From: a virus
Virus record (IMG/VR): IMGVR_UViG_3300020419_000009
Location: 35,400 to 99,399 of that record
DNA: 64,000 nt
Direction: 5' to 3' (one strand)
Below, piece after piece: positions 11,162 to 40,884 of the stretch (position 1 is its first letter; the number at the start of each line of letters is the position of its first letter). A program made the translations under genes and the position numbers. Below the pieces are notes generated by a model. It was not told the origin of the DNA, did no database searches, and saw only the letters and a list, made by a program, of their open reading frames with translations.

Positions 11162-11509
11162 ATGGATAAATCTTTAGACAAAGCCCTTGATTTCTCTAAC
11201 TATATGGTTACGTTTAATAACCAAAAACGCATTATCCATGAAGAATATTTAGAAGATTTGGTAGTGTATCAAAATGGCGGCAAGTTTACTGTAGATAAAG
11301 AGCTAATTTGTTTTGCTAATCATCTAAATGAAAAGGTTGAAACCAAAGTAGTACTGATAGATGACAACAATATACCTGTTGTAATTGAAGACTTGCAAAA
11401 ATTTCTACATGATATTACATCAACATATAGCGAAGCATCTCGAGTATACTATGACAAATATAAAAAAATGATAGACAAGAGAAGTGTGGAAAGTTTAGTT
11501 AATGTCTAA
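11162..11509 (+). CDS. Hypothetical protein (possible fibre assembly factor)
   Basis: 115 aa ORF with AGGAG RBS and TAAATA upstream; first gene of the enzyme island. Confidence 0.5.
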   Translation: MDKSLDKALDFSNYMVTFNNQKRIIHEEYLEDLVVYQNGGKFTVDKELICFANHLNEKVETKVVLIDDNNIPVVIEDLQKFLHDITSTYSEASRVYYDKYKKMIDKRSVESLVNV

Positions 11510-12335
11510 TGGGGTTTTATTGTTTGCAAATAATAATGGCAAGGTTGATTACTTAAAACAAGCAATTTTTTTGGCTAAGAGAGTAAAAGAATATCTTGGT
11601 GTTCCTGTATCTCTAGCAACCAGCAGTAAAAGAAAGCTAACGTATTCTTATGAAAAGGATATGGATCTTTTTGATAAGATAATTGAGATTCCAGATTCTT
11701 ATGAAAATACAAAACGTTATTACGACGGAACTTTGGACCACCAATACCTTTTGTTTAAAAATTATAGTAGAATAGATAGTTATGATATATCACCTTACAG
11801 TAAAACTCTTGTAATGGATACAGATTACATACTCTGTAACGATGATCTTAAACAAGCATTTACATCGAATACCGATTTTCAAATTTATAAAAAAGGAGTA
11901 GATGTTTGCGGTTGGAGAGAATACAATGAGTTTAATTACATTAATAAAATAGGTATACCTTTTTATTGGGCAACATGTTTTTGTTTCAAAAAAACAGAAA
12001 ATACAAAAATATTTTTTGAATTAATGAAACATTTAGAGAAAAATTGGATTCATTATTCTAAAATATATAATTTAGGAAGTAAAAATTTCAGAAACGATCA
12101 TGTGTTTAGTATTGCAATACATATGATGAACGGATTTGAAGATAGTGACTGGGCAAAAATATTACCCGGTAAGATGTTTTATACGTTAGATAGAGATAAA
12201 ATTTACAAAATTGATAAAGATAAATTAACATTCCTAGTAGAAAAACAAAATAGATCAGGCGAATATACATTAGCCTCTACTAATAAGTCAAATGTGCATG
12301 TTATGAATAAATTCAGTTTGGAAAAATTAATATGA
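11502..12335 (+). CDS. GT-A fold glycosyltransferase-like protein
   Basis: SPYSKTLVMDTDY (DxD) motif; FRNDHVFSIA; paralogous to the next gene. Confidence 0.6.
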   Translation: MSNGVLLFANNNGKVDYLKQAIFLAKRVKEYLGVPVSLATSSKRKLTYSYEKDMDLFDKIIEIPDSYENTKRYYDGTLDHQYLLFKNYSRIDSYDISPYSKTLVMDTDYILCNDDLKQAFTSNTDFQIYKKGVDVCGWREYNEFNYINKIGIPFYWATCFCFKKTENTKIFFELMKHLEKNWIHYSKIYNLGSKNFRNDHVFSIAIHMMNGFEDSDWAKILPGKMFYTLDRDKIYKIDKDKLTFLVEKQNRSGEYTLASTNKSNVHVMNKFSLEKLI

Positions 12336-13147
12336 AGAAAGGTTATCTATTAATAGCAAGTGGTAAAGAATATGTAAAGCAGGCTTGTTTATGTGCAATG
12401 AGCATCAAAGCCACACAAAAAATAAAAAACGTTTCTTTAGCAACCAATGACTTTGTTCCAAGAAAATATGCATCGTTGTTTGATGAAATTATAGAAATAC
12501 CTTGGGTAGATATGAATTTTGCGGCAACTTCTTATATTGCAGAACAACGATGGAAAGCATTTCATATTACACCGTACGAAGAAACTGTTCTGTTAGATAC
12601 TGATATGATATTTTTAAGCGAGGTTAGTCATTGGTGGAAATACTTGAGCAAACAAGATATATGTTTTACAAATAATGTATTTTCTTATAGAAATCAAAAG
12701 GTTACAAGTGATTTTTATAGAAAAGCGTTTTCAGAAAATAATTTACCTAGTGTGTACTGTGCGTTTCATTATTTTAAACAGAACGATACATGTTTAAAAT
12801 ATTATAAAACATTAGAAAACATTTGTAAAGATTTTGAAAGTTATTATAAGAAATATATTGTAAAATCAAGACCAGAACTATCTAGTATGGATATAAATCA
12901 TGCCCTTGCTTGTTTAATAACAGATACAAATACTAATACATGCGAGTGTTTAAATTTTGTGCATATGAAAAGTAAAGTACAAGATATTGAAAACATATCG
13001 TCTAATTGGTCTGATAGTTTACCTTATTACTTTACTGATGATTTAAAATTAAAAATAGGAAACTATTTACAACATGGAATATTTCATTACACAGAAAACA
13101 AGTTCTGTAATGATGTAATAGCAAAGTATGAAAAGGCAGTACTATGA
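12332..13147 (+). CDS. GT-A fold glycosyltransferase-like protein
   Basis: TPYEETVLLDTDMIF (DxD) motif, FVHMK, GIFHY. Confidence 0.6.
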   Translation: MKKGYLLIASGKEYVKQACLCAMSIKATQKIKNVSLATNDFVPRKYASLFDEIIEIPWVDMNFAATSYIAEQRWKAFHITPYEETVLLDTDMIFLSEVSHWWKYLSKQDICFTNNVFSYRNQKVTSDFYRKAFSENNLPSVYCAFHYFKQNDTCLKYYKTLENICKDFESYYKKYIVKSRPELSSMDINHALACLITDTNTNTCECLNFVHMKSKVQDIENISSNWSDSLPYYFTDDLKLKIGNYLQHGIFHYTENKFCNDVIAKYEKAVL

Positions 13148-13686
13148 AACACGAAAAAGTTCATACACCACAATATGTATCTTTTGATCAAAAAACAGGA
13201 GAAGTTTTCTGTATTGGGCCAACAATTCAAGAAGGCTACCAATACATAGAAGTTTCTGATGAACAGATTGAACCTATTAAAACATTCAAAGATAAGATGA
13301 CAGACTATAAAGTTGTCTATAACAAAAAAGAAAGAATGTTTAAATTAAAGAAACTTGTAGTTATTGAAGAAGATATTACATACCAAAAAATAGAAAAGTA
13401 TCAAAATGAAGAAATGGATTTTGATGTACTTTTAAACATTGATAAAAACAAGAAATCATGTTATATTGATACAAGCGAAGAATTATTAGATATAATGCAG
13501 AAAACTAACGTGGAACATAAAAATATTACATTTAGTTTTACTAAAAAAGATGATCCACATATTTTATATGATATGGTTACTTTTGAAATAAACAAAAATA
13601 GTAAACAGTCTATAAAAATACCAAAGCAATATGACGTTTATTCTAATAGTGATATGGCAAAATGTATGTACGGAGAAGTTAAATGA
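13144..13686 (+). CDS. Hypothetical protein
   Basis: 180 aa ORF with ATGA overlaps on both sides. Confidence 0.5.
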   Translation: MKHEKVHTPQYVSFDQKTGEVFCIGPTIQEGYQYIEVSDEQIEPIKTFKDKMTDYKVVYNKKERMFKLKKLVVIEEDITYQKIEKYQNEEMDFDVLLNIDKNKKSCYIDTSEELLDIMQKTNVEHKNITFSFTKKDDPHILYDMVTFEINKNSKQSIKIPKQYDVYSNSDMAKCMYGEVK

Positions 13687-14603
13687 AAGTAAACATAGCA
13701 GAGCTTGATATAATTTACCTAAGTTACGATGAACCCAATGCAGAAAAAAATTATGCAGACTTATTAAGCAAGGTTCCTTGGGCAAAAAGAGTACACGGAG
13801 TAAAAGGTTCAGATGCGGCTCATAAGGCCTGTGCAGAGTTAAGCACAACAGACAGATTTGTAACTGTTGACGGGGACAATACTATCCGACAAGATTTTCT
13901 AAATCAAGCATTAGACTTTGACGAACATACAGATTTAAAAAATAGTGTAATTAGTTGGTGCGGAAAGAATAGCATAAACGGTTTGCTATACGGCAACGGC
14001 GGATTAAAATGTTGGCCAAAAGAATTTGTTCTAAATATGAAAACGCACGAGAATGCTGATCCAGATAATCCTCATGCACAGGTTGATTTTTGTTGGGACG
14101 TACAGTATATACAACAAAATAGCTGTTACTCAGATGTTCATAACAACGAAACTCCACATCAAGCCTGGAGAGCAGGTTTTAGAGAAGGTGTCAAGATGGC
14201 ACTGGATAGAGGAGTAAAACCATCACATGAACAGTTTTTAAAAGGTCATTGGAAAAATTTACATAGGCTTTGGATCTGGTTAATGGTAGGAGCAGATGTA
14301 AAAAACGGTTATTGGGCTATTGCTGGAGCCAGAGAAGGTCTTGCTATGACAATGTTAACAGATTGGGATTATGTAAATGTTAGAGACTTTGTACATTTAA
14401 ATGAAATGTGGGCAGACAGAGATCAAATGCCAGATGATGTTTTACATAACGAAATATTTAATCATGGAACAAACTTAATTAATCAGCTAGGAATACCAAT
14501 TGCTGTACAGCCTCTGAACGAAGAGCAAAGCCAATTTTTTAAAACAGTTTATCAAAATCCTTCAAGAAACAGCGGCGAGCAATTTGTAATAGATGTAGAA
14601 TAA
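13683..14603 (+). CDS. Glycosyltransferase-like protein (GT-A, DGD motif)
   Basis: LSYDEPNAE...RVHGVKG..AH...FVTVDGDN...YGNGGLK...AWRAGFREGVK; paralogue of 15992..16678. Confidence 0.6.
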   Translation: MKVNIAELDIIYLSYDEPNAEKNYADLLSKVPWAKRVHGVKGSDAAHKACAELSTTDRFVTVDGDNTIRQDFLNQALDFDEHTDLKNSVISWCGKNSINGLLYGNGGLKCWPKEFVLNMKTHENADPDNPHAQVDFCWDVQYIQQNSCYSDVHNNETPHQAWRAGFREGVKMALDRGVKPSHEQFLKGHWKNLHRLWIWLMVGADVKNGYWAIAGAREGLAMTMLTDWDYVNVRDFVHLNEMWADRDQMPDDVLHNEIFNHGTNLINQLGIPIAVQPLNEEQSQFFKTVYQNPSRNSGEQFVIDVE

Positions 14604-14604
14604 T

Positions 14605-15999
14605 ATGGTAGAACAATTTAAATGGGAAGAACCTGAAAAAGTTTTAGAAAAACTTAATTCGGCAGGTTGTGGATTTTGTCTTGCGAAATGGACGCAGGTG
14701 ACCATGCATCTTGGATCAGGACTAACACAAAGTTGTCACCACGTAAAAGCTCATCCTATAGATTTAAATGACCTTGCATCAAATCCAAGTGTGTTACATA
14801 ACACAGGGTTCAAGAAGAATATAAGAAAACAAATGTTAAACGGAGAACGTCCAGCTGAATGTGATTACTGTTGGCGTATCGAAGATAATACTGGTATGTA
14901 TAGTGATAGGACATGGAAAAGTAGAGATCCGTTTAGTTGGCCACATGTAGACACGATTCAAAATCTTACAGGAAATGAAGACTTTTATCCTACATACGTT
15001 GAAGTAAGTTTTAGTAATGTGTGTAATTTCAAATGTGGATATTGTGGGCCTGCTTTTAGTAGTAAATGGACTGACGAAATTAATGAACACGGTCCTTATT
15101 TTTTTGGTGGAATAAATTGGAGATATAATCAACCAGATGAGTATCAAAAACAAATTCCTAATCGTGAACATAATCCGTACATCGAAGCTTTCTGGAAATG
15201 GTTTCCAGAAGCAGTTAAACACATGCATACATTTAGGATTACAGGCGGAGAGCCATTAATGAGTAAACATACTACAAAGGTGATGGATTATCTAATGGAC
15301 AATCCACAACCTAATTTAGAATTATCTATCAATAGCAATGCATGTCCTCCTGGTAACAACTGGAAAGAATTTGTTGACAAAGTTAAAGTGTTAGAAGATA
15401 AAAAATGTATTAAGCAGTTTATTCTTTTTGTAAGTGCAGAGGGTATGGGTGCTCAACAAGAATACAATAGGTTTGGAATGAACTGGGAAGTCTTTACAAA
15501 AAACGTTGAATATTTTTTAAAAACAACAAATGGTATGTGTAGTTTTATGAGTGCATTCAATGTTTTAAGTATTCCAAGTTTCTTTGATTTTATAAAGTAT
15601 GTATCAGGTCTTAAAGATATATATTGGTTTAGAAAAAGCAATCACCAGAGAGTAATAATAGATACGCCATATGTAAGAAGTCCAGGATTTTTAGATGCTA
15701 AGATTGCCACACATGATTTAGTAAAAAAATACCTATATCCTTGTGTACCGTTTATGCAAAAAAATAGATTCTCTGAAAGAGAAGTACAAAAGATGGATAG
15801 GATAGTAAAAGATTTAGACGTTAGAAACAGTAAACCAGAGGAGTTTGAAAGAGAAGCTATTGAAGGAAGACGTATGTTTTATCAGTGGATCGAACAGTAT
15901 GATAAAAGGCGCGGTACTGACTTTTTAAAAACTTTTCCGCAAATGAAAAAATTTTACGATGAATGCTTAGAATGTAAGAGGCTTGCAGATAATGTATGA
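14605..15999 (+). CDS. Radical SAM enzyme with N-terminal Cys-rich (twitch/SPASM-like) domain
   Basis: CNFKCGYC motif and TGGEP; N-terminal FCLAKW...SCHH...ECDYCW. Confidence 0.85.
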   Translation: MVEQFKWEEPEKVLEKLNSAGCGFCLAKWTQVTMHLGSGLTQSCHHVKAHPIDLNDLASNPSVLHNTGFKKNIRKQMLNGERPAECDYCWRIEDNTGMYSDRTWKSRDPFSWPHVDTIQNLTGNEDFYPTYVEVSFSNVCNFKCGYCGPAFSSKWTDEINEHGPYFFGGINWRYNQPDEYQKQIPNREHNPYIEAFWKWFPEAVKHMHTFRITGGEPLMSKHTTKVMDYLMDNPQPNLELSINSNACPPGNNWKEFVDKVKVLEDKKCIKQFILFVSAEGMGAQQEYNRFGMNWEVFTKNVEYFLKTTNGMCSFMSAFNVLSIPSFFDFIKYVSGLKDIYWFRKSNHQRVIIDTPYVRSPGFLDAKIATHDLVKKYLYPCVPFMQKNRFSEREVQKMDRIVKDLDVRNSKPEEFEREAIEGRRMFYQWIEQYDKRRGTDFLKTFPQMKKFYDECLECKRLADNV

Positions 16000-16678
16000 T
16001 ATAATTTTTATAAGTTACCATGAACCAAATGCAGAAGAAAATTTTACAAATCTTAACGATAGGTTTAACAGTATAGGTTTGTATGGAGAAAGAGTAAAGC
16101 GTGTAAAAAATGTTAAAGGTATACATAATGCTCATGTAGAAGGAGCAAAACTAGCCAGTACTAGTTATTTTTTTGTTGTAGACGGAGATGCTGTTATTGT
16201 TGATGATTTTGATTTCGATTATGTAACCAAAGATAAAGATATGGTACATGTTTATAGATGTATGAATCCTATAAATGATTTAGTATACGGATATGGCGGT
16301 GTTAAACTACTCCCAACCTGGCTAGTAAGAAATATGGATACAACTACAAACGATATGACAACTAGTATATCAAAAAATTTTAAAGTGCTTAATAAGATAT
16401 CAAATATTACTGCATTTAACACAGACCCGTTTAATACTTGGAAAAGTGCTTTTCGAGAATGTGCAAAATTATCAAGTAAAACTATAGATAGGCAAAAACA
16501 AGGAGAAACAGATGAAAGACTTAAAACTTGGACAACCGTGGGACAAGATAGACAGTATGGCGAATATGCTTTGGCAGGTGCTACCGCTGGTATGGAGTTT
16601 GGCCTTTCTAGCGGGTCTGATCTGGGGTTAATAAATAATTTTGAATGGTTAAAGGAACAGTTTAATGGAAACACATAA
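15992..16678 (+). CDS. Glycosyltransferase-like protein (GT-A, DGD motif)
   Basis: ISYHEPNAE...FFVVDGDA...YGYGGVK...WKSAFRECAK. ATG 15992 preferred over TTG 15983. Confidence 0.6.
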   Translation: MYDIIFISYHEPNAEENFTNLNDRFNSIGLYGERVKRVKNVKGIHNAHVEGAKLASTSYFFVVDGDAVIVDDFDFDYVTKDKDMVHVYRCMNPINDLVYGYGGVKLLPTWLVRNMDTTTNDMTTSISKNFKVLNKISNITAFNTDPFNTWKSAFRECAKLSSKTIDRQKQGETDERLKTWTTVGQDRQYGEYALAGATAGMEFGLSSGSDLGLINNFEWLKEQFNGNT

Positions 16679-17501
16679 ACTATTGGATAGATTTGAATTA
16701 CTGTATCCTTTGAACAGTAAATTAGCTGACTTGCGTAGAGCTTTTATAGATAAGGACCTACATAGTGTATTCAGGTTAATTACAGATAATAATAAAGAAG
16801 ATTTACGTAAAATAATATTAGAAGATAATAAATGGAGTCTATGGAAGATATTAGATTCAATGCTACAAACAAGACTTATACAATCATTAAAATCATTTGA
16901 AATCAATAAACTAGACATTGATGAAGATTGTTTAAGCCAAGGACAAATTAAAAGTAAATTATGGCTTTTAAAGGAATTACAAAATACAAAACTTGATTTA
17001 GGAACTGTGTTTATCTGTGCAGGGTGGTATGGAACTTTAGCTACAATGCTTTTTGAAAGTAAAATAAACATTGACAAGATAAGAAGTTTTGATATTGATA
17101 ATTCTTGTAAAAAGATTGCTGAAATTTTCAATAAACCCTGGGTAATAGAGGATTGGAAATTTAAACCAGTCACACAAGATATACATGATATAAACTTTGA
17201 TTCACATACCTATACTGTGACTAGGAATGATAGTACAGAATGTTCAATGACTGATTCACCAGATACAATTATAAACACTAGCTGTGAACACATTGACAAC
17301 TTTACAGAATGGTATGCAAAAATACCTAAAGGCAAACTAGTAGTTCTGCAAAATAATAATTTTTTCGAACTCAACGAACACGTAAATTGTGTTAACGACT
17401 TGGATGATTTTGCGTGCCAAACACCATTATCGAAAATACTATATGAAGGTGAATTAAAATTAGAAAAGTATACAAGATATATGAGAATAGGAGTAAAGTA
17501 A
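16665..17501 (+). CDS. Class I SAM-dependent methyltransferase-like protein
   Basis: ICAGWYG (motif I-like), RSFDID (acidic motif II), IINTSCEH. Confidence 0.6.
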   Translation: METHKLLDRFELLYPLNSKLADLRRAFIDKDLHSVFRLITDNNKEDLRKIILEDNKWSLWKILDSMLQTRLIQSLKSFEINKLDIDEDCLSQGQIKSKLWLLKELQNTKLDLGTVFICAGWYGTLATMLFESKINIDKIRSFDIDNSCKKIAEIFNKPWVIEDWKFKPVTQDIHDINFDSHTYTVTRNDSTECSMTDSPDTIINTSCEHIDNFTEWYAKIPKGKLVVLQNNNFFELNEHVNCVNDLDDFACQTPLSKILYEGELKLEKYTRYMRIGVK

Positions 17502-18047
17502 ATGCAAAAAGTGATACATGATACATACGTATCTAAAATAGTGCATGATCTTGATAAAAATATTCTGATTAAAACACTCAAAAGAAGAGATATTGAACGA
17601 CAATGGTTTGACCTTTATCAGAAACTACAAGAAAAAACTCCTAATGTTGTAAAAATATTTGATATGATAGATAAACGTACCTACACGATGGAATATTTAG
17701 AACACGTAATTGACAACTTTGATGACTTTACAAAACCACATAGGGCATTTCCTCCTGAAAAAAAGTTTACTAAGTTAGACTTTGTAAGACTTCATAAGTG
17801 TATATACGGCGTGTGGACATCAGCATTAGAATTAAGTGTAGATTTACCAGATCACCAGTTTTTTATAAACAATGATGCCAAGTTAGCTAATATATGCATA
17901 CTCAAACATAAGAGCGGATATCAATTCAAGTATATAGATGCAGATGGATGGTCAAGAACTAACGGTTATCATGGAATGGATTGTTATTACCAAACACAAT
18001 TAAAAATAGCATTACAAATGCAGAGGCTTTTAGTTCCTAATGTATAG
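17502..18047 (+). CDS. Minimal protein-kinase-like (APH/RIO-like) fold protein
   Basis: PNVVKIFD...YTMEYL (hinge), NNDAKLANI (catalytic-loop-like), YIDADG (DFG-like). Confidence 0.45.
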   Translation: MQKVIHDTYVSKIVHDLDKNILIKTLKRRDIERQWFDLYQKLQEKTPNVVKIFDMIDKRTYTMEYLEHVIDNFDDFTKPHRAFPPEKKFTKLDFVRLHKCIYGVWTSALELSVDLPDHQFFINNDAKLANICILKHKSGYQFKYIDADGWSRTNGYHGMDCYYQTQLKIALQMQRLLVPNV

Positions 18048-19116
18048 ATACGAAGATATTAGAACAATACACTTAGAGGTTACACAAAACTGCCAAGCCG
18101 CATGTCCTATGTGTGATCGTAATATGAATGGACAAGGTATCAATCCGCATATAAATTTAGATGAACTTACTCTAAAGGATTGTGAGAAAATATTTTCTCC
18201 TAAGTTTATAAGACAATTAAATACGATGTATATGTGTGGTAACCTTGGAGATCCTATAGTAGCTAAGGATACTTTAGAAATATTCAAATATTTTCGGAAG
18301 TGTAATCCTGACATATGGTTGAGCATGAATACCAACGCTGGAGCAAGAAATGAATCATGGTGGATGGAATTGGCAGACGTATTTGCTAGTCGCGGTGCTG
18401 TTATTTTTAGCGTTGATGGCTTACGATCTACAAATCACATATACCGCCAAGGCGTTGTTTGGGACAAGGTAGAAAGTAGCATGGATGCCTTTATCAAAGC
18501 AGGAGGAAGGGCTCGCTGGGACTTTTTGATATTCGAACATAACCAACACCAAGTTGATGAAGCTAGAGCGTTATCTGAAAAGAAAGGTTTTGAAAAATTT
18601 ATAGCTAAAAAAACTGGTAGATTTTTGACACAAGATAGTAATAAAAAAGATTCACATCAAGCTGTAAGTAAAAAAGGCATAGAAACAGCTACATTAAAGA
18701 AGCCGGATAAAAAGTATCAAAATAATGCTGTAAAGAAACAAAATGTAATTATTAAAAAATACGGCAGTATGGATGCGTATTATGATGCCGCACCTATTGT
18801 TTGTAAAGTAACAAAAGACAATAGTCTATATATTACTGCTGAAGGACTTGCATTGCCCTGTTGTTGGACAGCCGGCAGAATGTATAAATGGTGGCACAAG
18901 GATCCTTACGTAGAACAAATATGGGATCATATAGATCTTGCAGGAGGCAAAGAAGCCATTGATGCAAAACAGGGATTAGATAAAGTTTTTAACACAGGTA
19001 TATTTGATACTATTGCTAGGAGTTGGAATTTAGAAAGTTGTGGGTTAGGAAAATTAAAAGTTTGTGCAATGAAGTGTGGTGCAGAATTTGATCCTTTTAG
19101 GGAACAATTTACGTGA
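18040..19116 (+). CDS. Radical SAM enzyme with C-terminal twitch domain
   Basis: CQAACPMC; CGNLGDP; VDG...TNHIYR; FEHNQHQ; C-terminal C...PCC...C...C. Confidence 0.85.
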   Translation: MYRYEDIRTIHLEVTQNCQAACPMCDRNMNGQGINPHINLDELTLKDCEKIFSPKFIRQLNTMYMCGNLGDPIVAKDTLEIFKYFRKCNPDIWLSMNTNAGARNESWWMELADVFASRGAVIFSVDGLRSTNHIYRQGVVWDKVESSMDAFIKAGGRARWDFLIFEHNQHQVDEARALSEKKGFEKFIAKKTGRFLTQDSNKKDSHQAVSKKGIETATLKKPDKKYQNNAVKKQNVIIKKYGSMDAYYDAAPIVCKVTKDNSLYITAEGLALPCCWTAGRMYKWWHKDPYVEQIWDHIDLAGGKEAIDAKQGLDKVFNTGIFDTIARSWNLESCGLGKLKVCAMKCGAEFDPFREQFT

Positions 19117-26557: not shown

Positions 26558-26560
26558 AGA

Positions 26561-26589
26561 TTGCAATCTTTTCAAAAAGGTGTTATAAT
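26561..26589 (+). promoter_or_regulatory. Sigma70-type promoter, likely giving a leaderless mRNA
   Basis: TTGCAA-17 nt-TATAAT with TGn extension; ATG follows 5 nt after the -10 and there is no SD. Confidence 0.65.
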
Positions 26590-26594
26590 ATATT

Positions 26595-28410: not shown

Positions 28411-28417
28411 AGTATAA

Positions 28418-28432
28418 TATTTAGTTTAAATA
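28418..28432. promoter_or_regulatory. Back-to-back divergent TAAATA late-type promoter motifs
   Basis: TAAATA on - strand (28418-28423) 7 nt before ATG 28410; TAAATA on + strand (28427-28432) before GGAG and ATG 28455. Confidence 0.5.
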
Positions 28433-28454
28433 CTTTACTGTGGAGAATAATAAA

Positions 28455-29923: not shown

Positions 29924-29924
29924 A

Positions 29925-32987: not shown

Positions 32988-33649
32988 AAGACATAATTTT
33001 TACACCGTTAGCTATACCTCCTATACCTAATAAAGAAAAGATCCTTAATAGGTTTAATGCACCAGACTTTTACATCTGGTGGGACGAGGAAACATTATTA
33101 GGCGAAAAGAAAAATAACAATCCATTAGGAAATCCACAACAATGGACAGATAAAGCAAAAGAAAATTATCCTGAACTTATAGATTGGATAGAAACATACA
33201 TTCCTTGTGACGACTTTTACTATATCCGTATAGCAAGAGCCAAGCATGAAATTCCTCCACATATTGATGGTAATGCTGTTAAGCCAACACATGAACATCA
33301 TTTAGCTATAATGCCTGAAACACTAGAATATAATATGGAACACGAACCTATAGGATACCGTTTTGTTGTTTCAGGAAGTAAAAATAAAATGTATATGTGC
33401 AAGGAGTATGACTATACAAAAGATATGACCTGGCAAGAAAAACATAGATGTATTGTACCAGACGAAACAGATGCTTTTTTGATACGTAATCAAGATCAAG
33501 CACACGGTGTTGAAGCTGATACTGAAGATAGATTAATAGGCTTTATACTAGGAAAAGTTAATGCCAGGAGGCATTGGAACCTAATAGAAAAAAGCGTAAG
33601 TAAGTATAGCGATAAAGTAATAAGGAAACAAGATGTATTCAATGCATGA
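32984..33649 (+). CDS. 2OG-Fe(II)/cupin oxygenase-like protein
   Basis: IPPHIDG...QAHGV...DRLIGF. Confidence 0.55.
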   Translation: MKDIIFTPLAIPPIPNKEKILNRFNAPDFYIWWDEETLLGEKKNNNPLGNPQQWTDKAKENYPELIDWIETYIPCDDFYYIRIARAKHEIPPHIDGNAVKPTHEHHLAIMPETLEYNMEHEPIGYRFVVSGSKNKMYMCKEYDYTKDMTWQEKHRCIVPDETDAFLIRNQDQAHGVEADTEDRLIGFILGKVNARRHWNLIEKSVSKYSDKVIRKQDVFNA

Positions 33650-34235
33650 TGGTGCTAATATAAGTGTGCACCAAGAAATTGCACAGAGATTAAATCCAAA
33701 GACATGTGTAGAAATTGGTGCATACTATGGCGGTATTACTTACAAACTATGTAAACTATTACCACAAAGCCATTTTTTTGCAATCCAGGCATACCATGAT
33801 CACAAATTAAATCATATGCCTGATACGCCTAGAGGAGAATATAGTGTAGGTAGTGCAGAAGGTTCTATAGATCCTGATTTAAAAGATAAAGACTGGAAAC
33901 GTTCTGTAGTAAGACATTTTCCTAAAGAGTATCATGATTATTTTGATTTCAACTTACTTGTAAAAACATTCCAAGATACAGATAATGTGTCTATACTTTT
34001 AGACACAAGTCCGTTGAAATATGATTGGAAATTAGGTTTTGATCTTGCTATATTTGACGTATCTCCCTTGTTTGAAGAAAATGTAAAACAATTTAACTAT
34101 TGGTGTAAGTATGGCAATAACAGTAGTCATATATTGATGGGTGCATATACCCATCAAGAAGAATTTTATCAATATGTAGATAAAAGATATAAGGCTGAAA
34201 AAATAAGGGATGATTATGTTCTCGTGTGCATATGA
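33633..34235 (+). CDS. Class I SAM-dependent methyltransferase-like protein
   Basis: CVEIGAYYGG motif I; FDLAIFD. Confidence 0.55.
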   Translation: MYSMHDGANISVHQEIAQRLNPKTCVEIGAYYGGITYKLCKLLPQSHFFAIQAYHDHKLNHMPDTPRGEYSVGSAEGSIDPDLKDKDWKRSVVRHFPKEYHDYFDFNLLVKTFQDTDNVSILLDTSPLKYDWKLGFDLAIFDVSPLFEENVKQFNYWCKYGNNSSHILMGAYTHQEEFYQYVDKRYKAEKIRDDYVLVCI

Positions 34236-34881
34236 GATTAATTTAGATATTTCACAAGTTCGTGAAGAATTAAAGCATTTGAATAATCCTACGTTTAAAC
34301 GTGCAGGATATGATGACATGTGTTTTTATGTTTCTGATAAAACAATTAAAGACCAAGGCTGTGATGCTGTAATTAAATTTAAAAAGGATCTTGGTGATCC
34401 TTTTGTTGAAGGTGTTAGGTTTTTAAATATGTATCCTAAGTCATATTATCTCCCTCATTGTGATAGTAATGAGCAAGGCTTTCATGAAGATATACCCATG
34501 GATGTGCTACATCCAGGTAACGTAAACATATTACTCAGTGAACCTGTAGAAGATACAACTATATGGTATATTGATCCTGACCTAAGAAAACTATGGCCTT
34601 GGGGATTCTCTCCCAAAGGCGTTTTGTATCCCGGAGATATAAATCCTAACATTACGAAAGAGTCTATGGGCCATGATTATAGTAATCTTGTAGAAGTTGA
34701 TAGATTTAAATTACAGGATAAAGCTACATTATTCAATAGTGGAGTCAATCATCATATAGTAAGCGAAGATAAAGAAAATCCAAGAGCAAGTGCGTGTTTT
34801 GTATTTTGGCCCTATAATACATGGCAAGGTATCGTAGAAGCAATGAAGTTAAAAGGTTTATTAAATGACCGCGTGGAATAA
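34210..34881 (+). CDS. 2OG-Fe(II)/cupin oxygenase-like protein
   Basis: LPHCDS...VNHHIV...PRASACF. Confidence 0.55.
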   Translation: MIMFSCAYEINLDISQVREELKHLNNPTFKRAGYDDMCFYVSDKTIKDQGCDAVIKFKKDLGDPFVEGVRFLNMYPKSYYLPHCDSNEQGFHEDIPMDVLHPGNVNILLSEPVEDTTIWYIDPDLRKLWPWGFSPKGVLYPGDINPNITKESMGHDYSNLVEVDRFKLQDKATLFNSGVNHHIVSEDKENPRASACFVFWPYNTWQGIVEAMKLKGLLNDRVE

Positions 34882-35392
34882 AGAAAAACTTTTTATCCAC
34901 ATACCTAAAACTGCTGGACGAAGTGTTACAGTATCAATGGGAAAGGTAAACATAAAACCACATGCTCCTATTTCAGACCCTAGCTTACCTAAATTACCAA
35001 GTTTTACAGTTGTAAGAAATCCGTATGAACGAGCAGTAAGTTGGTGGAAATATTCTAAAGAATTTGGTATAGATGTAGGATTTTTGGAATATCTTTATAT
35101 GTATTTTAATAAACCTTGGCCTAATTGGCAGGAACAGTTTCAAGAATATACTACTACTACTTCAGACTTTCATTTAGGAGAATTCAAACCTAGCATTCCT
35201 ATGATAGATTATATATCTATAGACGGAAAGGTCTGTGTTGATAATATTATTAGATTAGAAGATAATACTATTCAAGAACGAAAAAACGTTAGCAAATTCC
35301 AAGTAAATACTAGAGAGATACTTACACCGGAGGCTAAGAATGTAATTGAACACTATTATGGTGTTGACTTAGAAAGATTTAATTATGCATAA
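34865..35392 (+). CDS. Sulfotransferase family protein (Sulfotransfer_2-like)
   Basis: FIHIPKTAGRS (5'-PSB loop) and VRNPYERAVSWW (3'-PB); C-terminal YGVDLERFNY. Confidence 0.8.
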   Translation: MTAWNKEKLFIHIPKTAGRSVTVSMGKVNIKPHAPISDPSLPKLPSFTVVRNPYERAVSWWKYSKEFGIDVGFLEYLYMYFNKPWPNWQEQFQEYTTTTSDFHLGEFKPSIPMIDYISIDGKVCVDNIIRLEDNTIQERKNVSKFQVNTREILTPEAKNVIEHYYGVDLERFNYA

Positions 35393-35999
35393 AAAAACTT
35401 TACCCAGTATACACAATTTTAAACTAGATATTGACTTAAAAAAGCTACAACAAGCAACAGATACACTTGCAGAAAAGTTTGTAGATGTTAAAACAGCTAA
35501 TCCAATGTTATGCGACAATCACATGGAGTTAGTTGCTCATGTGTACGATAATTTTGAACAAATAAACTTAACTACCCCTAGTGAGATATTACCTTATACG
35601 ACTAGCATAAAAGAAAGATTAAAACGTAAAGAAGAACATTTATATAATGTTCCTACAGAAGATTATAAAAATAGCTACTTTGAACAAGTAGTTACGCAAC
35701 TCAAATCACCTGCAAGTAGGATTAGAATAACTAAATTAGCACCAGGAAAAAATATTCCATTTCATGTGGATTATGACGTAAGTTATGCTGTAAGATGTAT
35801 TGTTCCTATCTACGGCGACAAACAGGTTATTAATTTATTCAAACGCGAAGATAAACTTGAAGCATATAATTTAGAAAATGGCAATGCTTATTTCCTAAAC
35901 ATAGGATATCCACATGCTGTGGTTAACATGAGTAACAAACCACGAATTGCATTGATGTTTAGTTTAAATGGAACGGATGACTTGGATGGATTGGTATAA
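35385..35999 (+). CDS. Aspartyl/asparaginyl beta-hydroxylase-like oxygenase
   Basis: RITKLAPGKNIPFHVDY...YPHAVVNMSNKPRIALMF. Confidence 0.7.
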   Translation: MHKKTLPSIHNFKLDIDLKKLQQATDTLAEKFVDVKTANPMLCDNHMELVAHVYDNFEQINLTTPSEILPYTTSIKERLKRKEEHLYNVPTEDYKNSYFEQVVTQLKSPASRIRITKLAPGKNIPFHVDYDVSYAVRCIVPIYGDKQVINLFKREDKLEAYNLENGNAYFLNIGYPHAVVNMSNKPRIALMFSLNGTDDLDGLV

Positions 36000-36546
36000 A
36001 TTAGATATTCCGGTGACTACCCAATATATAGACTTAGCAAAAAAATGTTATGAATTAGAAGGTAGGTATGGACAGAATGAAGATTTATTAAGTCCATTTA
36101 GAAATCTTCCTATTGATATAGTTACATATAAGTTTAGAGTAATGAATGATATAGAAGAAATTCATCCGCATAAAGATCGCAATAATGGGCAATATAACTT
36201 TGATGGAGAAGTTATAGGAGCAATTCAAGTACCAATTGAAAATCCTACCTATGCAGAAACTACTTGGTGGAACGCAGATAAAGATATAGATGACGGCTGG
36301 CATTTTTACAAAGGTAATGCTAAATCATTATTTGATAAAGATCCAAATTTTGTACCTGAAGGATTTACTAAAAAAAGCACAATGATAATGGATAACAAGT
36401 GTGCTTTGATACGTATAGATGGATGGCATTCAGTACGAAGATTAAATGAGGGAAGAAGACTTATTTTATCATTAATTATTGATCCAAAGTATACATGGAA
36501 TGAAATTACAAGTAGGCTTATGCCGTTAGTAGAGGAGAGAATATGA
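35968..36546 (+). CDS. 2OG-Fe(II)/cupin oxygenase-like protein
   Basis: IHPHKD...GWHSV...RRLILSL; start may be ATG 35986. Confidence 0.55.
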   Translation: MERMTWMDWYKLDIPVTTQYIDLAKKCYELEGRYGQNEDLLSPFRNLPIDIVTYKFRVMNDIEEIHPHKDRNNGQYNFDGEVIGAIQVPIENPTYAETTWWNADKDIDDGWHFYKGNAKSLFDKDPNFVPEGFTKKSTMIMDNKCALIRIDGWHSVRRLNEGRRLILSLIIDPKYTWNEITSRLMPLVEERI

Positions 36547-37124
36547 AGTGTTGTTACGAATTAAATATTGAAATAAGTGATGCGTATAAGGAACGAGTAA
36601 AAGAAATTTATGACTTGTGCAAAGATGATGCAAAGAAAGATGTTGCACCAGATTGTATGCGGAAAGAGTTTCCGGAATTATGGGCACCTATTGAACCAGT
36701 AGCTGATTGGTTTTCACCTGTAGTAAGAATGTTATATGAACCTCCGGGACAAAAAGTTGTAAAGCATATTGATCTAAATGCACATGCACAATATGGTGAT
36801 GCAGGAAGATACATAATTTGTCCAGGTGCTTTAAATATTCCTTGCTTCAAACCCATTGGAGATATTACTAAATGGTGGCGACAAAAAAATCCTGAATTTA
36901 TTCATCCATATGATTTTTGGAAGGGAAAAGATCATGACATGGTAGAAATAGATTCATTTGAAATAACAACTAAGCCTGTTATGCTACGTACAGGAGTATT
37001 TCATAGTGCTGAAAATAACGGTAGTGAAAATAGATTAATGGTTAGTTTTTTTACTCATTGGACTGTTGATTGGGATACTATTATTGACGTGATGTCTTCC
37101 AACGGACTCTTACTTCCTCGTTAG
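36543..37124 (+). CDS. 2OG-Fe(II)/cupin oxygenase-like protein
   Basis: VKHID...VFHSAEN...NRLMVSF. Confidence 0.55.
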   Translation: MKCCYELNIEISDAYKERVKEIYDLCKDDAKKDVAPDCMRKEFPELWAPIEPVADWFSPVVRMLYEPPGQKVVKHIDLNAHAQYGDAGRYIICPGALNIPCFKPIGDITKWWRQKNPEFIHPYDFWKGKDHDMVEIDSFEITTKPVMLRTGVFHSAENNGSENRLMVSFFTHWTVDWDTIIDVMSSNGLLLPR

Positions 37125-37611
37125 CAAAAGGCCAACCACTTATATTAATTCTACTTCCTGTACACGGTTCAACCCAATGATCAAAACCTGTATTCATGAT
37201 TACAAGTCTGTTTCTTTTAGGAAGTATAGTCATGTCTTCTGTACATAAAGAACCGTCAATTTCGTCTGTCATATAAAGCATCCACACCCAATTACCATAT
37301 ACAGCAGGATCTTCTTTGTGTTTTCCTATATGACTTGATGGAGTAAACTTTTTAGCAAATAGTTGTAATGGCTCTAAATCTATGTACGGAACAGGCTCAC
37401 CTATGTATTTAGAAACCTTATGCAATAATTCTAACCTATCATAACTTTTTCGTATGTCATTTTTTACAATTTGCCATTCGTATTCAGAATAGTCTCCTAC
37501 GTGAGAACCAGTATCACTATCTAATTGTTTTAATTCCCCTTCACAAAGTTTATCAAGTTTTTTGAGATAGTCTTCCTCAAAGACGTCATCAACTACTATA
37601 ACCGTTTTCAC
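37081..37611 (-). CDS. 2OG-Fe(II) oxygenase (prolyl-hydroxylase-like)
   Basis: IGKHKED...MLYM...PKRNRLVI...DHWVEP...RINISGW. Confidence 0.65.
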   Translation of the reverse strand: MKTVIVVDDVFEEDYLKKLDKLCEGELKQLDSDTGSHVGDYSEYEWQIVKNDIRKSYDRLELLHKVSKYIGEPVPYIDLEPLQLFAKKFTPSSHIGKHKEDPAVYGNWVWMLYMTDEIDGSLCTEDMTILPKRNRLVIMNTGFDHWVEPCTGSRINISGWPFANEEVRVRWKTSRQ

Positions 37612-38341
37612 GAGTCCAATCCTTCCAAGTTAGGTTAGTATCTTCTAACCACTGATTATTATGATCTTGTCCTTTACTGTTAGGACCATTAATACTAGCA
37701 ACAGCATGTAGTCTTACACTTTTACATGGTGTTACAGAATGTGCTTTTGCTGTATTTAAAATGAATGCTTCTCCGGGTTTTCTAAACACACTTCCGTCAC
37801 AAGATTCAATACTACTAGTGACACCTTCTCCGTCGTTTAGTAGAACATGATGATATCTAAAACCTGTATCTCCGTCAGTGTGCCATTCAAACTCACAATC
37901 GTGTTCCATATAACTGAACCAATAATTGTTACGCAAATAAGGTATCTTGTTAGATAGTTCTGAAAAATATTTACTTCCTAATTTTTTAAAGTCTTTATGA
38001 AAAAACGCATAGATGTTTAATCCTTTATAGTCTCCTAATCTTGCGTTTTCTTTTTTCATGTTGATATAATATAGTACACCGGATTCGTATTGAGTTTCTT
38101 TCACATAGTCTAGCCAGTTGTGTTCATCTTTTATATCAAATCCTCTAAGACTATTGTATACTTCTCTTTTACTTACAAGTTCATCTGGCCTTTCTAAATA
38201 AACATTCAAGTAAGTTTGGTATCCAAACTCTAAGTCAGGCCATATTTCATCGGTCATGTTGTAAAATAATTGTGTTAATTCTTTAGTATTACTTACAGGG
38301 TCGCAATGAATAAATCCTTCTTTCATATGTTGATCAAACAT
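37589..38341 (-). CDS. AspH-like 2OG-Fe(II) oxygenase
   Basis: FEWHTDGD...LNTAKAHSV...RLHAV; start may be ATG 38326. Confidence 0.6.
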   Translation of the reverse strand: MFDQHMKEGFIHCDPVSNTKELTQLFYNMTDEIWPDLEFGYQTYLNVYLERPDELVSKREVYNSLRGFDIKDEHNWLDYVKETQYESGVLYYINMKKENARLGDYKGLNIYAFFHKDFKKLGSKYFSELSNKIPYLRNNYWFSYMEHDCEFEWHTDGDTGFRYHHVLLNDGEGVTSSIESCDGSVFRKPGEAFILNTAKAHSVTPCKSVRLHAVASINGPNSKGQDHNNQWLEDTNLTWKDWTRENGYSS

Positions 38342-38784
38342 TTATGTAACTCCTCTATTGGTTCTGCAAAGCAGATTTGAAAATTGTATCTTGGATGTTC
38401 ATTATTGTTTATATAATGCGGTATTTGTGTATTAAATAATATAGGACTTTCATGTGTAACCTTAATACCATCGTTAAAATAACAAGGAGCATATTCTTCA
38501 TGCCAAAATAAAGGCACAATTAAAACTGTATTTCTATTCCATTTATTGTTATCTGTATGCTCTATTACTTTTGCATTGGCTTCTTGATGCACAAACATAG
38601 TATAACATTCATAGTTAAATCTTTTGAAATATGGCAGATCCATATCCCAACATAAATTTCCATCATGTTTTCCGCTTATTGTATCGTATGCAATAAAATT
38701 TGCTTCTGGAGATTTGCAAAGCCCTTCTAGAAACGTTACGTCTTCTTTGGATATTAAATTTGTTTTTTCAAAATAAGGAATCAC
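38323..38784 (-). CDS. 2OG-Fe(II)/cupin oxygenase-like protein
   Basis: IEHTDN...FNTQIPHYI...PRYNFQI. Confidence 0.55.
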   Translation of the reverse strand: MIPYFEKTNLISKEDVTFLEGLCKSPEANFIAYDTISGKHDGNLCWDMDLPYFKRFNYECYTMFVHQEANAKVIEHTDNNKWNRNTVLIVPLFWHEEYAPCYFNDGIKVTHESPILFNTQIPHYINNNEHPRYNFQICFAEPIEELHKCLINI

Positions 38785-39428
38785 AATGAAATCCTTTTAC
38801 GCCATTCAATCACACTCTCCTCGCATGTGGTAATATTACAAACCAACCATATGCTATCTATTGCACTAGCATTGAACAACCAATGTCTTTTATTTGTGTT
38901 TAGGTAGTACATTCTTCCTAGTTCCCATTGTAACGGAAAATAGTTTTGATCGTCTCCGTACATCCAACAAAAGTCCGGAGGATTAACGTTTTGTAAAGGA
39001 AATACAATTCTAAAAGATGTAGGTATACGAAAAGTTCCACCATCGATATGAGGAGGAAAATGTCCTCCCTGCGGTAATCTAATAAATTGTGTTCTGTTCA
39101 ACCAAGGCTTCCAACATTTTAACATATCTTGTAGTATAGGACTGTTATCGTATACTGTAGTAAAGTGTTTAAAATCTTCTTCGTAAAGATTTTTTCCAGT
39201 TGCTTTTGTAATATCTTTTAAACTACCAAAGTTTATAGGATCGTTAGTTCCATCAAAACTTGTTACTGCTAATGCATCTCTTTTTATTTCTGGCTTGTAT
39301 GGATTATATTTTTGCCAGAGGTTGTCAAATTGCTTTATCTCTTGTAAAAGTTCAAAGGGCTTTACTTTATAATCACAACTTAAAAAGTCACCATATAATT
39401 GCATTTGACTATATAGAGTCCAACTCAT
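38781..39428 (-). CDS. AspH-like 2OG-Fe(II) oxygenase
   Basis: GGHFPPHID...LNTNKRHWLFN; paralogue of 28455..29213. Confidence 0.6.
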   Translation of the reverse strand: MSWTLYSQMQLYGDFLSCDYKVKPFELLQEIKQFDNLWQKYNPYKPEIKRDALAVTSFDGTNDPINFGSLKDITKATGKNLYEEDFKHFTTVYDNSPILQDMLKCWKPWLNRTQFIRLPQGGHFPPHIDGGTFRIPTSFRIVFPLQNVNPPDFCWMYGDDQNYFPLQWELGRMYYLNTNKRHWLFNASAIDSIWLVCNITTCEESVIEWRKRISL

Positions 39429-39876
39429 TCATTACCTCCTTTACTGCATCTTGTACTGTTATATTTGTTTCTAATTCTGGATTGTTATCTAAAATAGAAT
39501 GCCCTTTTGCAAACCCCCAAGTAAGATAAGTCTGTCCTAAACTCTGGCTTATCTCCTTTAATGCAATTTTATTATCTTTCGTAATTATATCTGCATGTTC
39601 AGTGACAGTTGCTTCTGTTATATTGCTACCTATGTTTATACATGGTAATTCCTGTCTGTGTGATTGTACACATATATTCACCTGTGCATTACCAACATCT
39701 GCATTATTAATAATACAATCTAGTTTTTTATCAAACACAGGAGATACATCAAACATTAAATCATGGCCGCTAGTTTTACTAAAGCCTTCTACAGTATGCC
39801 CTGCGGCTCTACATGCTTCAGCAATATGTTTGCCAAAGCCCGAAGTATGTCCTGTTATGCCAATCTTAAGACCCAT
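39409..39876 (-). CDS. Short NAD(P)-binding Rossmann/SDR-like protein
   Basis: IGITGHTSGFG glycine motif, INNAD, INIGS; ATG 39876 with GGAGG RBS. Confidence 0.65.
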   Translation of the reverse strand: MGLKIGITGHTSGFGKHIAEACRAAGHTVEGFSKTSGHDLMFDVSPVFDKKLDCIINNADVGNAQVNICVQSHRQELPCINIGSNITEATVTEHADIITKDNKIALKEISQSLGQTYLTWGFAKGHSILDNNPELETNITVQDAVKEVMNELDSI

Positions 39877-40310
39877 TGTAATCCTCCCATAGGTATATCT
39901 TCTTGATTCAATGTCCATTCATAAGAACTATTTTGCTTAAACCATTCTAGTAATTTTGGATTTTCTTCTCTGCTTATCCAGATATCTTTATAGCCCATGT
40001 TCAAAGCAAACTTTGTGCTTTGTTCTAATGTACTTTTGCCACGTGCAAGATCATCCTTTATACTGCCCCAATTATAAGTTCTATCTCGTGTATGCCTGCT
40101 CATGATTCTAATGCTACCATTATATTCAGGACGTTCTATTCCTGCACTGTAATATATTAAATGAGGATCATATGCCATACGGGCAAATTTTGTGTATTCA
40201 AATAAAGGCCATTTGCTATAATTATCAGCATGTTTGTGTCCTTTTGTTTTTTCAAACAGTGATTTTATATTGACTAAATGATTATCTATTGGCTCTAGGT
40301 GCCACTGCAT
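39855..40310 (-). CDS. GNAT-fold-like protein
   Basis: RIMSR...EQSTKFALNMGYKDIWISRE pattern resembles the GNAT C-terminal half; ATG 40310. Confidence 0.35.
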   Translation of the reverse strand: MQWHLEPIDNHLVNIKSLFEKTKGHKHADNYSKWPLFEYTKFARMAYDPHLIYYSAGIERPEYNGSIRIMSRHTRDRTYNWGSIKDDLARGKSTLEQSTKFALNMGYKDIWISREENPKLLEWFKQNSSYEWTLNQEDIPMGGLQWVLRLA

Positions 40311-40884
40311 TATTACTTTCCTCGTGATGATCTTTATGGTTGCCTTCAAACGGAGCAATTAAATTTACCCATAGTCTGTTGGCAGGTCCTTCTGCATCGT
40401 GCCCAAAAAGATTCAAAAGTCCGAAGCCCAGATATGATAGGATAAAAATCTGAGAAAGTATTATTATTCCTGGTATACTAAAAATAATGTAAACCAACAA
40501 TGCTGTGATAGAATAGATATGATATCTATATTTGTGAAAAAATATTATTCTTTTATTTTTTAAACAGTCTTTTATATACTTCCTTGGAATACTATCAACA
40601 CTCCACAAACTAAACAAAATTTTCCACCATGGCTGAAATTTTGCACTATGTGGGTCCTTAGGTGTATCTGCATAGCGATGATGCATTCTATGTACACCTA
40701 CCCATCCTAATGGAGATCTACAGCCACATAGTAATCCGCAATATAGCATTACTACTTCTCCTACAGAATTAGTTGCAAATTCTTGATGTGAAAAATATCT
40801 ATGGTAACCGTATGTAATACCAATCGTTACGATTAAGTAATATGCTATGTATCCATAGAGTAGTATCCAGTATGATTCTATCAT
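40282..40884 (-). CDS. Membrane fatty acid desaturase (delta-9/DesC-like, compact)
   Basis: Three His boxes YHRYFSH, HRMHH and HKDHH, plus DPHS and hydrophobic TM segments. Confidence 0.85.
   Translation of the reverse strand: MIESYWILLYGYIAYYLIVTIGITYGYHRYFSHQEFATNSVGEVVMLYCGLLCGCRSPLGWVGVHRMHHRYADTPKDPHSAKFQPWWKILFSLWSVDSIPRKYIKDCLKNKRIIFFHKYRYHIYSITALLVYIIFSIPGIIILSQIFILSYLGFGLLNLFGHDAEGPANRLWVNLIAPFEGNHKDHHEESNNAVAPRANR

Follow-up and report, generated by a model that had tools for sequence, protein, structure and literature searches.

A fibre-flanked gene island in a marine jumbo phage encodes radical SAM enzymes, oxygenases and glycosyltransferases that may build and edit a virion decoration

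The window analysed here is a stretch of 64,000 nucleotides (nt) from an uncultured virus (bases 35400-99399 of IMG/VR record IMGVR_UViG_3300020419_000009). Within positions 11162-40884 it contains an island of 38 intact open reading frames (ORFs; g01-g38), encoding four glycosyltransferases (GTs), ten radical S-adenosylmethionine (SAM) enzymes and 11 supported iron- and 2-oxoglutarate-dependent (Fe/2OG) oxygenases. The island adjoins fibre genes, is modular and conserved, and has homologues in other phages and in Bdellovibrio, where a link to fibre genes is likewise found. We propose, with a probability of roughly 45%, that it encodes a pathway, cytoplasmic and probably late, for building a sugar decoration, editing it and attaching it to fibre or other virion proteins. 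We infer the sugar-centred chemistry, the protein acceptor, the late timing and each individual reaction. We favour this reading because four GT genes head the island, the island is tied to fibre genes, it lacks membrane machinery, and its operons share a TAAATA motif with the fibre block. The GT genes are embedded in the structural module, as would be expected of a virion glycosylation system, for which there is precedent in phages (Freeman et al. 2023, as cited in PMC12619734).

The island is bracketed by virion genes on both sides. To the left, a giant virion-type protein of 4997 amino acids (aa), with PHROG matches to virion structural protein and head-closure families, occupies positions 1-4143 and extends upstream in the record. 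It is followed by four fibre-like genes on the plus strand (4776-6857, 6857-8686, 8718-10196 and 10211-11125) with PHROG tail-fibre and virion-protein matches. Homologues of the giant protein (2500-5000 aa) precede the fibre genes in related contigs, and the order of the left-hand fibre homologues is kept in G004 and G005. To the right, g39 (40917-42062, minus strand) encodes a fibre-like protein with internal repeats, whose N-terminus matches Mtd_N (PF18454) at 1.6e-10. Mtd_N is the N-terminal domain of the Bordetella phage major tropism determinant; the 99-kb record yielded no reverse transcriptase and hence gives no indication that a diversity-generating retroelement lies behind g39.

A TAAATA motif is located 24-42 nt upstream of the fibre-block genes at 4165 (whose sole PHROG match lacks an assigned function) and 8718, and at the same range of distances upstream of g01, g20 and g39. 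The full T4 late consensus TATAAATA is depleted in the window (three copies versus approximately 13 expected), and it is the shorter TAAATA alone that recurs ahead of the fibre and island operons. One of the three TATAAATA copies lies just upstream of the fibre gene at 8718.

Most of the 38 ORFs overlap or abut by a few bases, and the gaps between genes inside the island are at most 45 nt. Genes g01-g31 are on the plus strand, with the exception of g19, and g32-g38 are on the minus strand. The island is made up of three layers: a head (g01-g08), a radical SAM array (g09-g18) and an oxygenase-rich right half (g19-g38). Because a hydropathy scan predicted membrane segments in g38 only among the island proteins, the chemistry is likely to be cytoplasmic, without lipid-linked assembly or export. 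Twenty island proteins that lacked annotation had no match to PHROGs at E≤1e-3.

The head consists of g01, two GT8 genes, g04, a GT-A gene, a radical SAM gene with an N-terminal twitch domain, a second GT-A gene and a methyltransferase gene. g02 and g03 (11502-13147, plus strand) are paralogous and glycogenin-like: both have a conserved LDTD (DxD) motif, and the profile of their alignment (A8) matched glycogenin-1/2 in the PDB at E 4e-9 over residues 3-103, with the C-terminal half unmatched. The motif and the glycogenin similarity together place them in GT8. g05 (13683-14603, plus strand) has a predicted GT-A fold with a C-terminal helical domain. Its AlphaFold2 (AF2) model, one of two that were made (g05 and g08), has a pLDDT of 88.4 and a VIA Z of 10.5 (rmsd 3.2 Å, 141 residues aligned, over residues 2-154). 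The top Foldseek matches of g05 are the peptide glycosyltransferases SunS/ThuS and the chlorovirus PBCV-1 capsid glycosyltransferase A64R, at approximately E 1e-4. g07 (15983-16678, plus strand) is a paralogue of g05 (BLASTP 5e-25), and both aspartates of the DxD motif (D63 and D65) are invariant in the g05/g07 alignment (A2). None of the four GT genes (g02, g03, g05 and g07) matched a GT family in Pfam, the g05/07 and g08 family profiles had no useful match among PDB sequences, and comparison of the g05/07 family with Bdellovibrio GT2 paralogues using hhalign returned a probability of 12% only, around the DxD motif. We regard g05 and g07 as members of a new GT-A family.

Among the remaining head genes, g08 (16665-17501, plus strand) encodes a class I SAM-dependent methyltransferase: its AF2 model has a pLDDT of 94.9, and the best Foldseek match has an E-value of 1.6e-7. 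At least 500 Foldseek matches had E≤1e-3, and the matches listed are all methyltransferases or close kin of the fold; an Atlas search indicates Methyltransf_31. The first gene, g01 (115 aa; 11162-11509, plus strand), has DUF4376 as its nearest named Atlas cluster, at 0.88, and always directly follows fibre genes in G002, G003, G005 and the cultured phage RsoM2USA (where it is gp354). As a lead only, g01 may be a fibre-assembly chaperone. g04 (180 aa; 13144-13686, plus strand) has no Pfam match and weak PHROG matches above E 1e-3, and its position is occupied by a similarly sized gene in relatives. g09 (17502-18047, plus strand), which opens the radical SAM array, is tentatively a small protein-kinase-like gene with invariant K24, D125, N130 and D146; its profile weakly matches DYRK kinases in the PDB at E 0.016.

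All ten radical SAM genes (g06, g10-g16, g18 and g24) contain the CX3CX2C motif. Nine of the ten match PF04055, six above the 29.5-bit cut-off and three just below, and the tenth, g12 (20162-21238), is recognised by paralogy to g10, g11 and g16 (BLASTP 1e-24 to 1e-43). Three proteins pass the 170-bit cut-off of NF033640 (N_Twi_rSAM): g06 (14605-15999, plus strand; 311 bits, CX3CX2C at residue 140), g13 (21235-22644, plus strand; 421 bits) and g15 (187 bits). In these, the twitch domain precedes the radical SAM domain, an architecture that reverses the usual domain order. In a diverse alignment of N-twitch proteins, C12, C31, C93 and C96 are invariant or nearly so and stand before C149/C153/C156; the broad alignment was too diverse for a genome scan. 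NF033640 is itself a sequence model that names no substrate or reaction, and the three copies here are far outnumbered by those in relatives. g13 is the best-conserved gene of the island, with 79-85% identity across many proteins in marine metagenomes.

The paralogues g10, g11 and g12 (18040-21238, plus strand) have C-terminal Cys-rich domains of SPASM/twitch type, and g14, g15 and g16 (22634-25871, plus strand) are a radical SAM enzyme, the third N-twitch enzyme and a radical SAM enzyme with a SPASM domain, respectively. Auxiliary-cluster domains occur in all nine radical SAM enzymes that are not of the B12 type, and most of the secondary NCBIfam matches of these enzymes are to peptide maturases, far below cut-off. 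g18 (26595-27713, plus strand) belongs to the core that is shared with Bdellovibrionota (see below). At 26557-26595, it is preceded by GGTGTTATAATATATT, a sigma-70-like -10 (TATAAT-like) box, instead of TAAATA, and this box may be an internal promoter for g18. The tenth enzyme, g24 (31467-32987, plus strand), is of the B12 type (class B-like), with 43.7 bits to PF04055 and a weak B12-binding domain (17.7 bits versus a 32.1-bit cut-off). Its nearest model is NF033712 (the KedN5 B12 C-methyltransferase) at 155.7 bits versus a cut-off of 700, so g24 is not a KedN5 member; it is likely a C-methyltransferase.

The array also contains g17 (25868-26557, plus strand), a PP-loop ATPase with an SGGxDS motif (alignment A3) and a C-terminal CxxCxxC. 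Its profile matches GMP synthase, ThiI and TilS in the PDB at E ~1e-3, and its score to QueC is 20.2 bits versus a cut-off of 22, over the C-terminus only. The right half opens with g19 (27706-28410, minus strand), a nitroreductase-family flavoenzyme (PF00881, 30.3 bits versus a 23.5-bit cut-off), followed by g20-g23 (28440-31488, plus strand), which encode an AspH-like oxygenase, an Fe/2OG oxygenase with an invariant HxD..H triad that matches DfmD (g21), a TauD oxygenase (g22, 1e-20) and a HisC-like class I/II aminotransferase dependent on pyridoxal phosphate (PLP; g23). Downstream of g24 (32984-37124, plus strand) are the AspH-like cupin oxygenases g25, g27, g29, g30 and g31, a predicted protein (g26) and a tentative sulfotransferase (g28), the last called from a weak 19-residue match. 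The minus-strand genes at 37081-40884 encode g32, with a weak match to 2OG-FeII_Oxy_3; the AspH-like g33 and g35; the predicted proteins g34 and g37, of which g34 is a possible Fe/2OG oxygenase; a short-chain dehydrogenase/reductase (SDR; g36); and a fatty-acid-desaturase-like protein (g38). g29 and g35 match Asp_Arg_Hydrox, and g20, g25, g27, g30, g31 and g33 join the AspH-like set through an iterative hidden Markov model search and hhalign. This gives eight AspH-like, one TauD and two other supported Fe/2OG oxygenases.

A preliminary description of this stretch had listed about 35 tightly coupled genes, including ten radical SAM enzymes (one of them B12-dependent), four GT-A enzymes, a PP-loop ATPase, a PLP enzyme, a nitroreductase, an SDR and a desaturase, all of which we recovered. 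Its estimate of about 12 Fe/2OG oxygenases holds for 11, with g34 a possible further member. One of its two methyltransferases was confirmed by fold (g08); the other could not be confirmed, and neither could its GNAT-like (N-acetyltransferase-like) gene. The sulfotransferase (g28) and kinase-like (g09) assignments find weak matches only. The bracketing by virion genes, the late-type motif at the head of the island and the lack of a scaffold synthase or visible precursor of a ribosomally synthesised and post-translationally modified peptide (RiPP), which it had also described, agree with our results.

The source phage is an uncultured marine jumbo myophage of a T4-type lineage with a genome of approximately 360 kb. 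Its portal is 48-52% identical to those of the T4-type jumbo myophages GAP32, fHe-Yen9, Atu_ph07 and Phosso (350-490 kb), and, with the portals of the GAP32, Atu_ph07 and Phosso jumbo phages nearest to its own, it is not a pelagimyophage. The 99.4-kb record has a CheckV completeness of 26%. The portal is kept at 51-87% identity in five larger cassette-bearing contigs (137-246 kb), and the lineage genome size is estimated from the 38-67% completeness of these contigs. Neither the island nor its left flank matched cultured phages in a megablast search, and g14 had no tblastn match in cultured phages; in IMG/VR, g14 has at least 532 relatives.

Among 79 fetched loci, the order [g05 g07] g08 g10 g11 g13 g17 g13 g14 g13 g18 recurs, and there are 3-13 radical SAM genes per 21 kb (median 9). 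The three layers of the island differ in their distribution. The head, as g01-g02-g03-(g04)-g05-g06, begins right behind the fibre genes in four contigs with portal identities of 51-87% to the source phage (G002, G003, G004 and G005), and thus also in phages with portal identities as low as 51-67%. A compact cassette in L058 reads g01 g02 g03 g05 g07 g18 g13 g08 g10 g14, and in the related loci L059-L069 a compact radical SAM core ends at a g39-like fibre gene in convergent orientation. The right half is whole in the closest relatives only and occurs piecemeal elsewhere.

The head is also found in the cultured 344-kb Ralstonia phage RsoM2USA (MG752970.1), in which the fibre-like gp355 is followed by gp354-gp347, corresponding to g01-g08 in order. 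Seven of these genes are 30-46% identical to their island counterparts (gp353 and gp352 33-36% to g02/g03, gp350 46% to g05 and gp349 39% to g06), and gp351, at the position of g04, has no BLAST match. RsoM2USA differs from the window in having one radical SAM gene only; it lacks both the array and the oxygenase half, and all eight genes of its module are annotated as hypothetical. The gp354-gp347 module is part of the structural block, and a GDP-mannose 4,6-dehydratase gene lies three genes away. ORF356 and ORF361, which adjoin the module, are confirmed virion proteins (PMC8504454).

To characterise the cellular homologues, we scanned one genome per prokaryotic species. This revealed 404 relatives of g13, of which the best 80 are overwhelmingly from Bdellovibrionota. 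The core in these bacteria comprises g05/07, g08, g10, g13 (approximately 59% identical) and g18 (approximately 60-66% identical). The contigs that carry it reach 3 Mb, with complete chromosomes and the isolate Bdellovibrio sp. HCB2-146 among them, and the loci, with a GC content of 0.30-0.58, lie beside dnaG, rpoD and tRNA synthetase genes. Because the core is common to free-living Bdellovibrionota, the chemistry of the island is not specific to viruses. Genes for two GT2 families, an SDR, a B12 radical SAM enzyme and a NodU/CmcH-type carbamoyltransferase recur near the core, which in HCB2-146 is surrounded by at least six GT2 genes. When 103 neighbour genes in Bdellovibrionota were surveyed with Pfam, most proved to be housekeeping genes, and the core has no uniform glycan locus around it.

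In three Bdellovibrionota loci (L122, L117 and L154), a G/S/T-rich protein of 846-1355 aa lies within approximately 6.5 kb of a core gene and carries a Peptidase_S74 domain, the endosialidase intramolecular-chaperone domain that is typical of phage fibres; in L122 this fibre protein directly flanks the GT/radical SAM cluster. In a Bdellovibrionales metagenome-assembled genome (MAG), a 1351-aa protein with a GT2 domain adjoins the core (L146:3359-7414, minus strand), and in a Pseudobdellovibrionaceae locus a PqqF-like M16 peptidase is encoded a few kb from the radical SAM core (L106:17640-20486, minus strand), a single case that hints at a peptide substrate.

A phylogeny of g13 places the main phage clade (SH-aLRT 95) within Bdellovibrionota sequences, beside those of Bacteriovoracaceae. 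As very long paralogue branches determine the root of this tree, we do not claim a direction of transfer. Nine contigs (L090-L093, L133, L135, L139, L140 and L142) assigned to MAGs of Flavobacteriales, Planctomycetota, Rickettsiales, Gammaproteobacteria, Verrucomicrobiales, Acidimicrobiaceae and Chloroflexota have a phage-like cassette order and g13 sequences that cluster with viral ones. These are probably wrongly binned phage contigs.

Under the favoured reading of a decorated fibre, the soluble GT8 (g02 and g03) and GT-A (g05 and g07) enzymes would place sugars from nucleotide sugars on a cytoplasmic acceptor, most probably a fibre or another virion protein, before or during assembly. The twitch/SPASM radical SAM enzymes, the methyltransferase and the B12-type radical SAM enzyme would then edit the sugar or its linkage, with C-H abstraction chemistry, epimerisation, dehydration, and C- or O-methylation as candidate edits. 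The variable right half could add hydroxylation, oxidation and amination through the AspH-like and TauD oxygenases, the aminotransferase, the SDR and the nitroreductase. Sugar chemistry is plausible because of the four GTs, the GDP-mannose 4,6-dehydratase near the RsoM2USA module, and the GT2, carbamoyltransferase and SDR genes around the cellular homologues. An extended SDR of the nucleotide-sugar epimerase/dehydratase type is encoded in the replication-side operon of the window (59907-60626, minus strand), with matches to UDP-glucose 4-epimerase and dTDP-glucose dehydratase at approximately E 1e-10; it could feed the island GTs as well as a proposed DNA modification.

The preliminary description had likewise read the island as a single pathway that modifies virion proteins or builds a virion glycan. 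An island within the fibre block, soluble proteins, plausible sugar chemistry and a TAAATA motif shared with fibre genes support that reading in part. The idea of one pathway fares less well, as g19-g38 vary between relatives and the head and core modules occur alone elsewhere.

Several observations weigh against a sugar decoration of fibres. Enzymes such as the HisC-like aminotransferase, the nitroreductase, the PP-loop ATPase and the SDR typically act on small molecules, and SPASM/twitch radical SAM enzymes are best known for peptide substrates. The window's own nucleotide-sugar genes are in a different operon (58.7-61.5 kb). The structural matches of g05 (TM ~0.3, tied Z) do not separate protein from glycan acceptors. 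In G001 the cassette lies 50-90 kb away from recognisable fibre genes, and most Bdellovibrionota cores lie amid housekeeping genes with no fibre gene within 10 kb. The acceptor and substrates are suggested by gene context, and the variable right half need not serve the same product as the rest of the island and may well serve a different one.

The best placed of the alternatives, which we nonetheless consider unlikely, is that the enzymes mature the fibre polypeptide directly, as in RiPP biosynthesis, introducing cross-links, epimerisation and Asp/Asn-type hydroxylation by radical and oxidative chemistry, with the GTs capping sites. This would account for nine non-B12 radical SAM enzymes with auxiliary-cluster domains and secondary matches that lean towards peptide maturases, for eight AspH-like paralogues, and for the resemblance of the GTs to enzymes that glycosylate proteins or peptides (glycogenin-like GT8, SunS/ThuS and A64R). 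The fibre genes that adjoin in phages and in three Bdellovibrionota loci, and the M16 peptidase near the module in L106, also fit. However, the matches to named peptide maturases are all far below cut-off, and twitch enzymes also use sugars and nucleotides (BtrN and MoaA). A substrate peptide is also hard to find. The island contains no precursor peptide, its gaps of at most 45 nt leaving no room for one, and there is no repeat-tailed or Cys/His-rich small ORF in the window, the genome record or the fetched loci. The HxS/CHxS repeat protein is absent, HxsB and HxsC matching at 22-24 bits versus cut-offs of 370 and 268, and the genome fragment has no collagen-like GXY repeats that could act as acceptor. 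No recognition-element protein turned up, although none was specifically sought. Finally, g13 is 79-85% conserved while fibres diverge fast, for which a constant small substrate is a better fit.

A second alternative is that the island yields a soluble small molecule (for example, an edited nucleoside, an aminoglycoside-like sugar or an amino-acid derivative), produced in the course of infection or predation, that acts on the host, prey or competitors and is not attached to the virion. This is a little less likely again. The mix of enzymes is one that tailors metabolites (PLP aminotransferase, TauD, SDR, nitroreductase, PP-loop ATPase and B12 C-methylase, with a carbamoyltransferase at cellular loci), all of the enzymes are soluble, and the Bdellovibrionota core occurs without neighbouring structural genes. 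On the other hand, the island has no scaffold synthase, exporter or self-resistance gene, four GTs stand at its head, its position in the fibre block is conserved, and it shares a late-type motif with the fibre genes.

We regard as improbable a third alternative, in which the host envelope is modified (at the lipopolysaccharide (LPS) O-chain or lipid A) and superinfection thereby blocked. In its favour, the lipid A hydroxylase LpxO belongs to the AspH family, LPS synthesis commonly involves GT8 enzymes, and the desaturase g38 is a membrane protein. A role in altering the host envelope has also been proposed for the GTs in the host-recognition cluster of pelagimyophages (PMC7029224). Yet the 38 genes include no flippase, polymerase, ligase or polyprenyl-phosphate transferase, and no membrane protein besides g38; the phage looks lytic, the motif upstream of the island resembles those of structural genes, and the Bdellovibrionota module adjoins fibre genes in three loci. 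Hypermodification of nucleic acid (for example, a 7-deazapurine-type or glycosylated base) is very improbable: phage GTs often act on DNA (PMC12619734), the C-terminus of g17 is weakly QueC-like, and several radical SAM enzymes weakly match QueE, MoaA or viperin, but all QueC and QueE scores are below cut-off (17-21 bits versus 260 for QueE), a separate candidate DNA-modification operon lies at 49-61 kb, and the island has no TGT/DpdA-like or DNA-binding gene and is tied to fibre genes and not to the replisome.

The proposed decoration of fibre or virion proteins has partial counterparts in known systems. PBCV-1 A64R and Mimivirus R699, both of which g05 matches in structure, are soluble GT-A enzymes from viruses and act on capsid or fibril proteins. 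The pairing of a hydroxylase and a GT in Mimivirus L230 resembles the pairing of AspH-like enzymes with GTs in the island. These proteins differ in belonging to eukaryotic viruses, in their identity of 10-14%, and in having no radical SAM enzymes. We also know of no radical SAM enzymes or swarm of oxygenases in the virion glycosylation operons of mycobacteriophages. Those operons (Freeman et al. 2023, PMC10527164, as cited in PMC12619734) are alike in that GT genes lie beside structural genes and virion proteins are decorated in the cytoplasm, and differ in that the glycans have been demonstrated, whereas the island is known from its genes alone.

The closest published setting is the host-recognition cluster of pelagimyophages and cyanomyophages (Zaragoza-Solas et al. 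2020, PMC7029224), a variable region behind a giant VrlC-like structural gene that contains tail fibres, many GTs (mostly GT8) and "radical SAM cassettes". The window agrees with it in architecture, having a giant gene, fibres, GTs and radical SAM genes. That study reads the GTs as modifiers of the host O-chain, and is silent on the module structure, the N-twitch family and the link to Bdellovibrionota. Its passing mention of such cassettes is the only published one that we found, and a literature search linking Bdellovibrio or jumbo phages with radical SAM enzymes returned nothing relevant.

Three genes elsewhere in the record were also noted. Past the right-hand fibre gene, products encoded at 43659-44921 and 45038-46129 (both on the minus strand) match PHROG families annotated as HNH endonuclease (8e-115) and ATPase (4e-104), respectively. 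A gene of the capsid operon upstream of the window (L088:1284-1883, minus strand) had no match in a PDB sequence search that would support a Maf or sialyltransferase assignment.

A sugar decoration edited in this way would be a radical chemistry without a characterised counterpart in glycan or virion biology, and a very common group of aquatic giant phages would be spending approximately 10% of its genome on oxygen-sensitive radical chemistry for host recognition. Islands of this type hold dozens of unstudied radical SAM subfamilies, and both RsoM2USA and Bdellovibrio sp. HCB2-146 are in culture, which makes direct testing possible. Sharing this core with Bdellovibrionota also connects the phages to a second kind of bacterial predator. 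More speculatively, and with low probability, phages and predatory Bdellovibrionota may share an ancient fibre-maturation kit, in which N-twitch and SPASM radical SAM enzymes, AspH-like hydroxylases and dedicated GTs place radical cross-links and hydroxylation-linked, edited glycans on the fibres that recognise host or prey. If so, adsorption, stability or evasion of host defences would be tuned by structural-protein modification of a new class.

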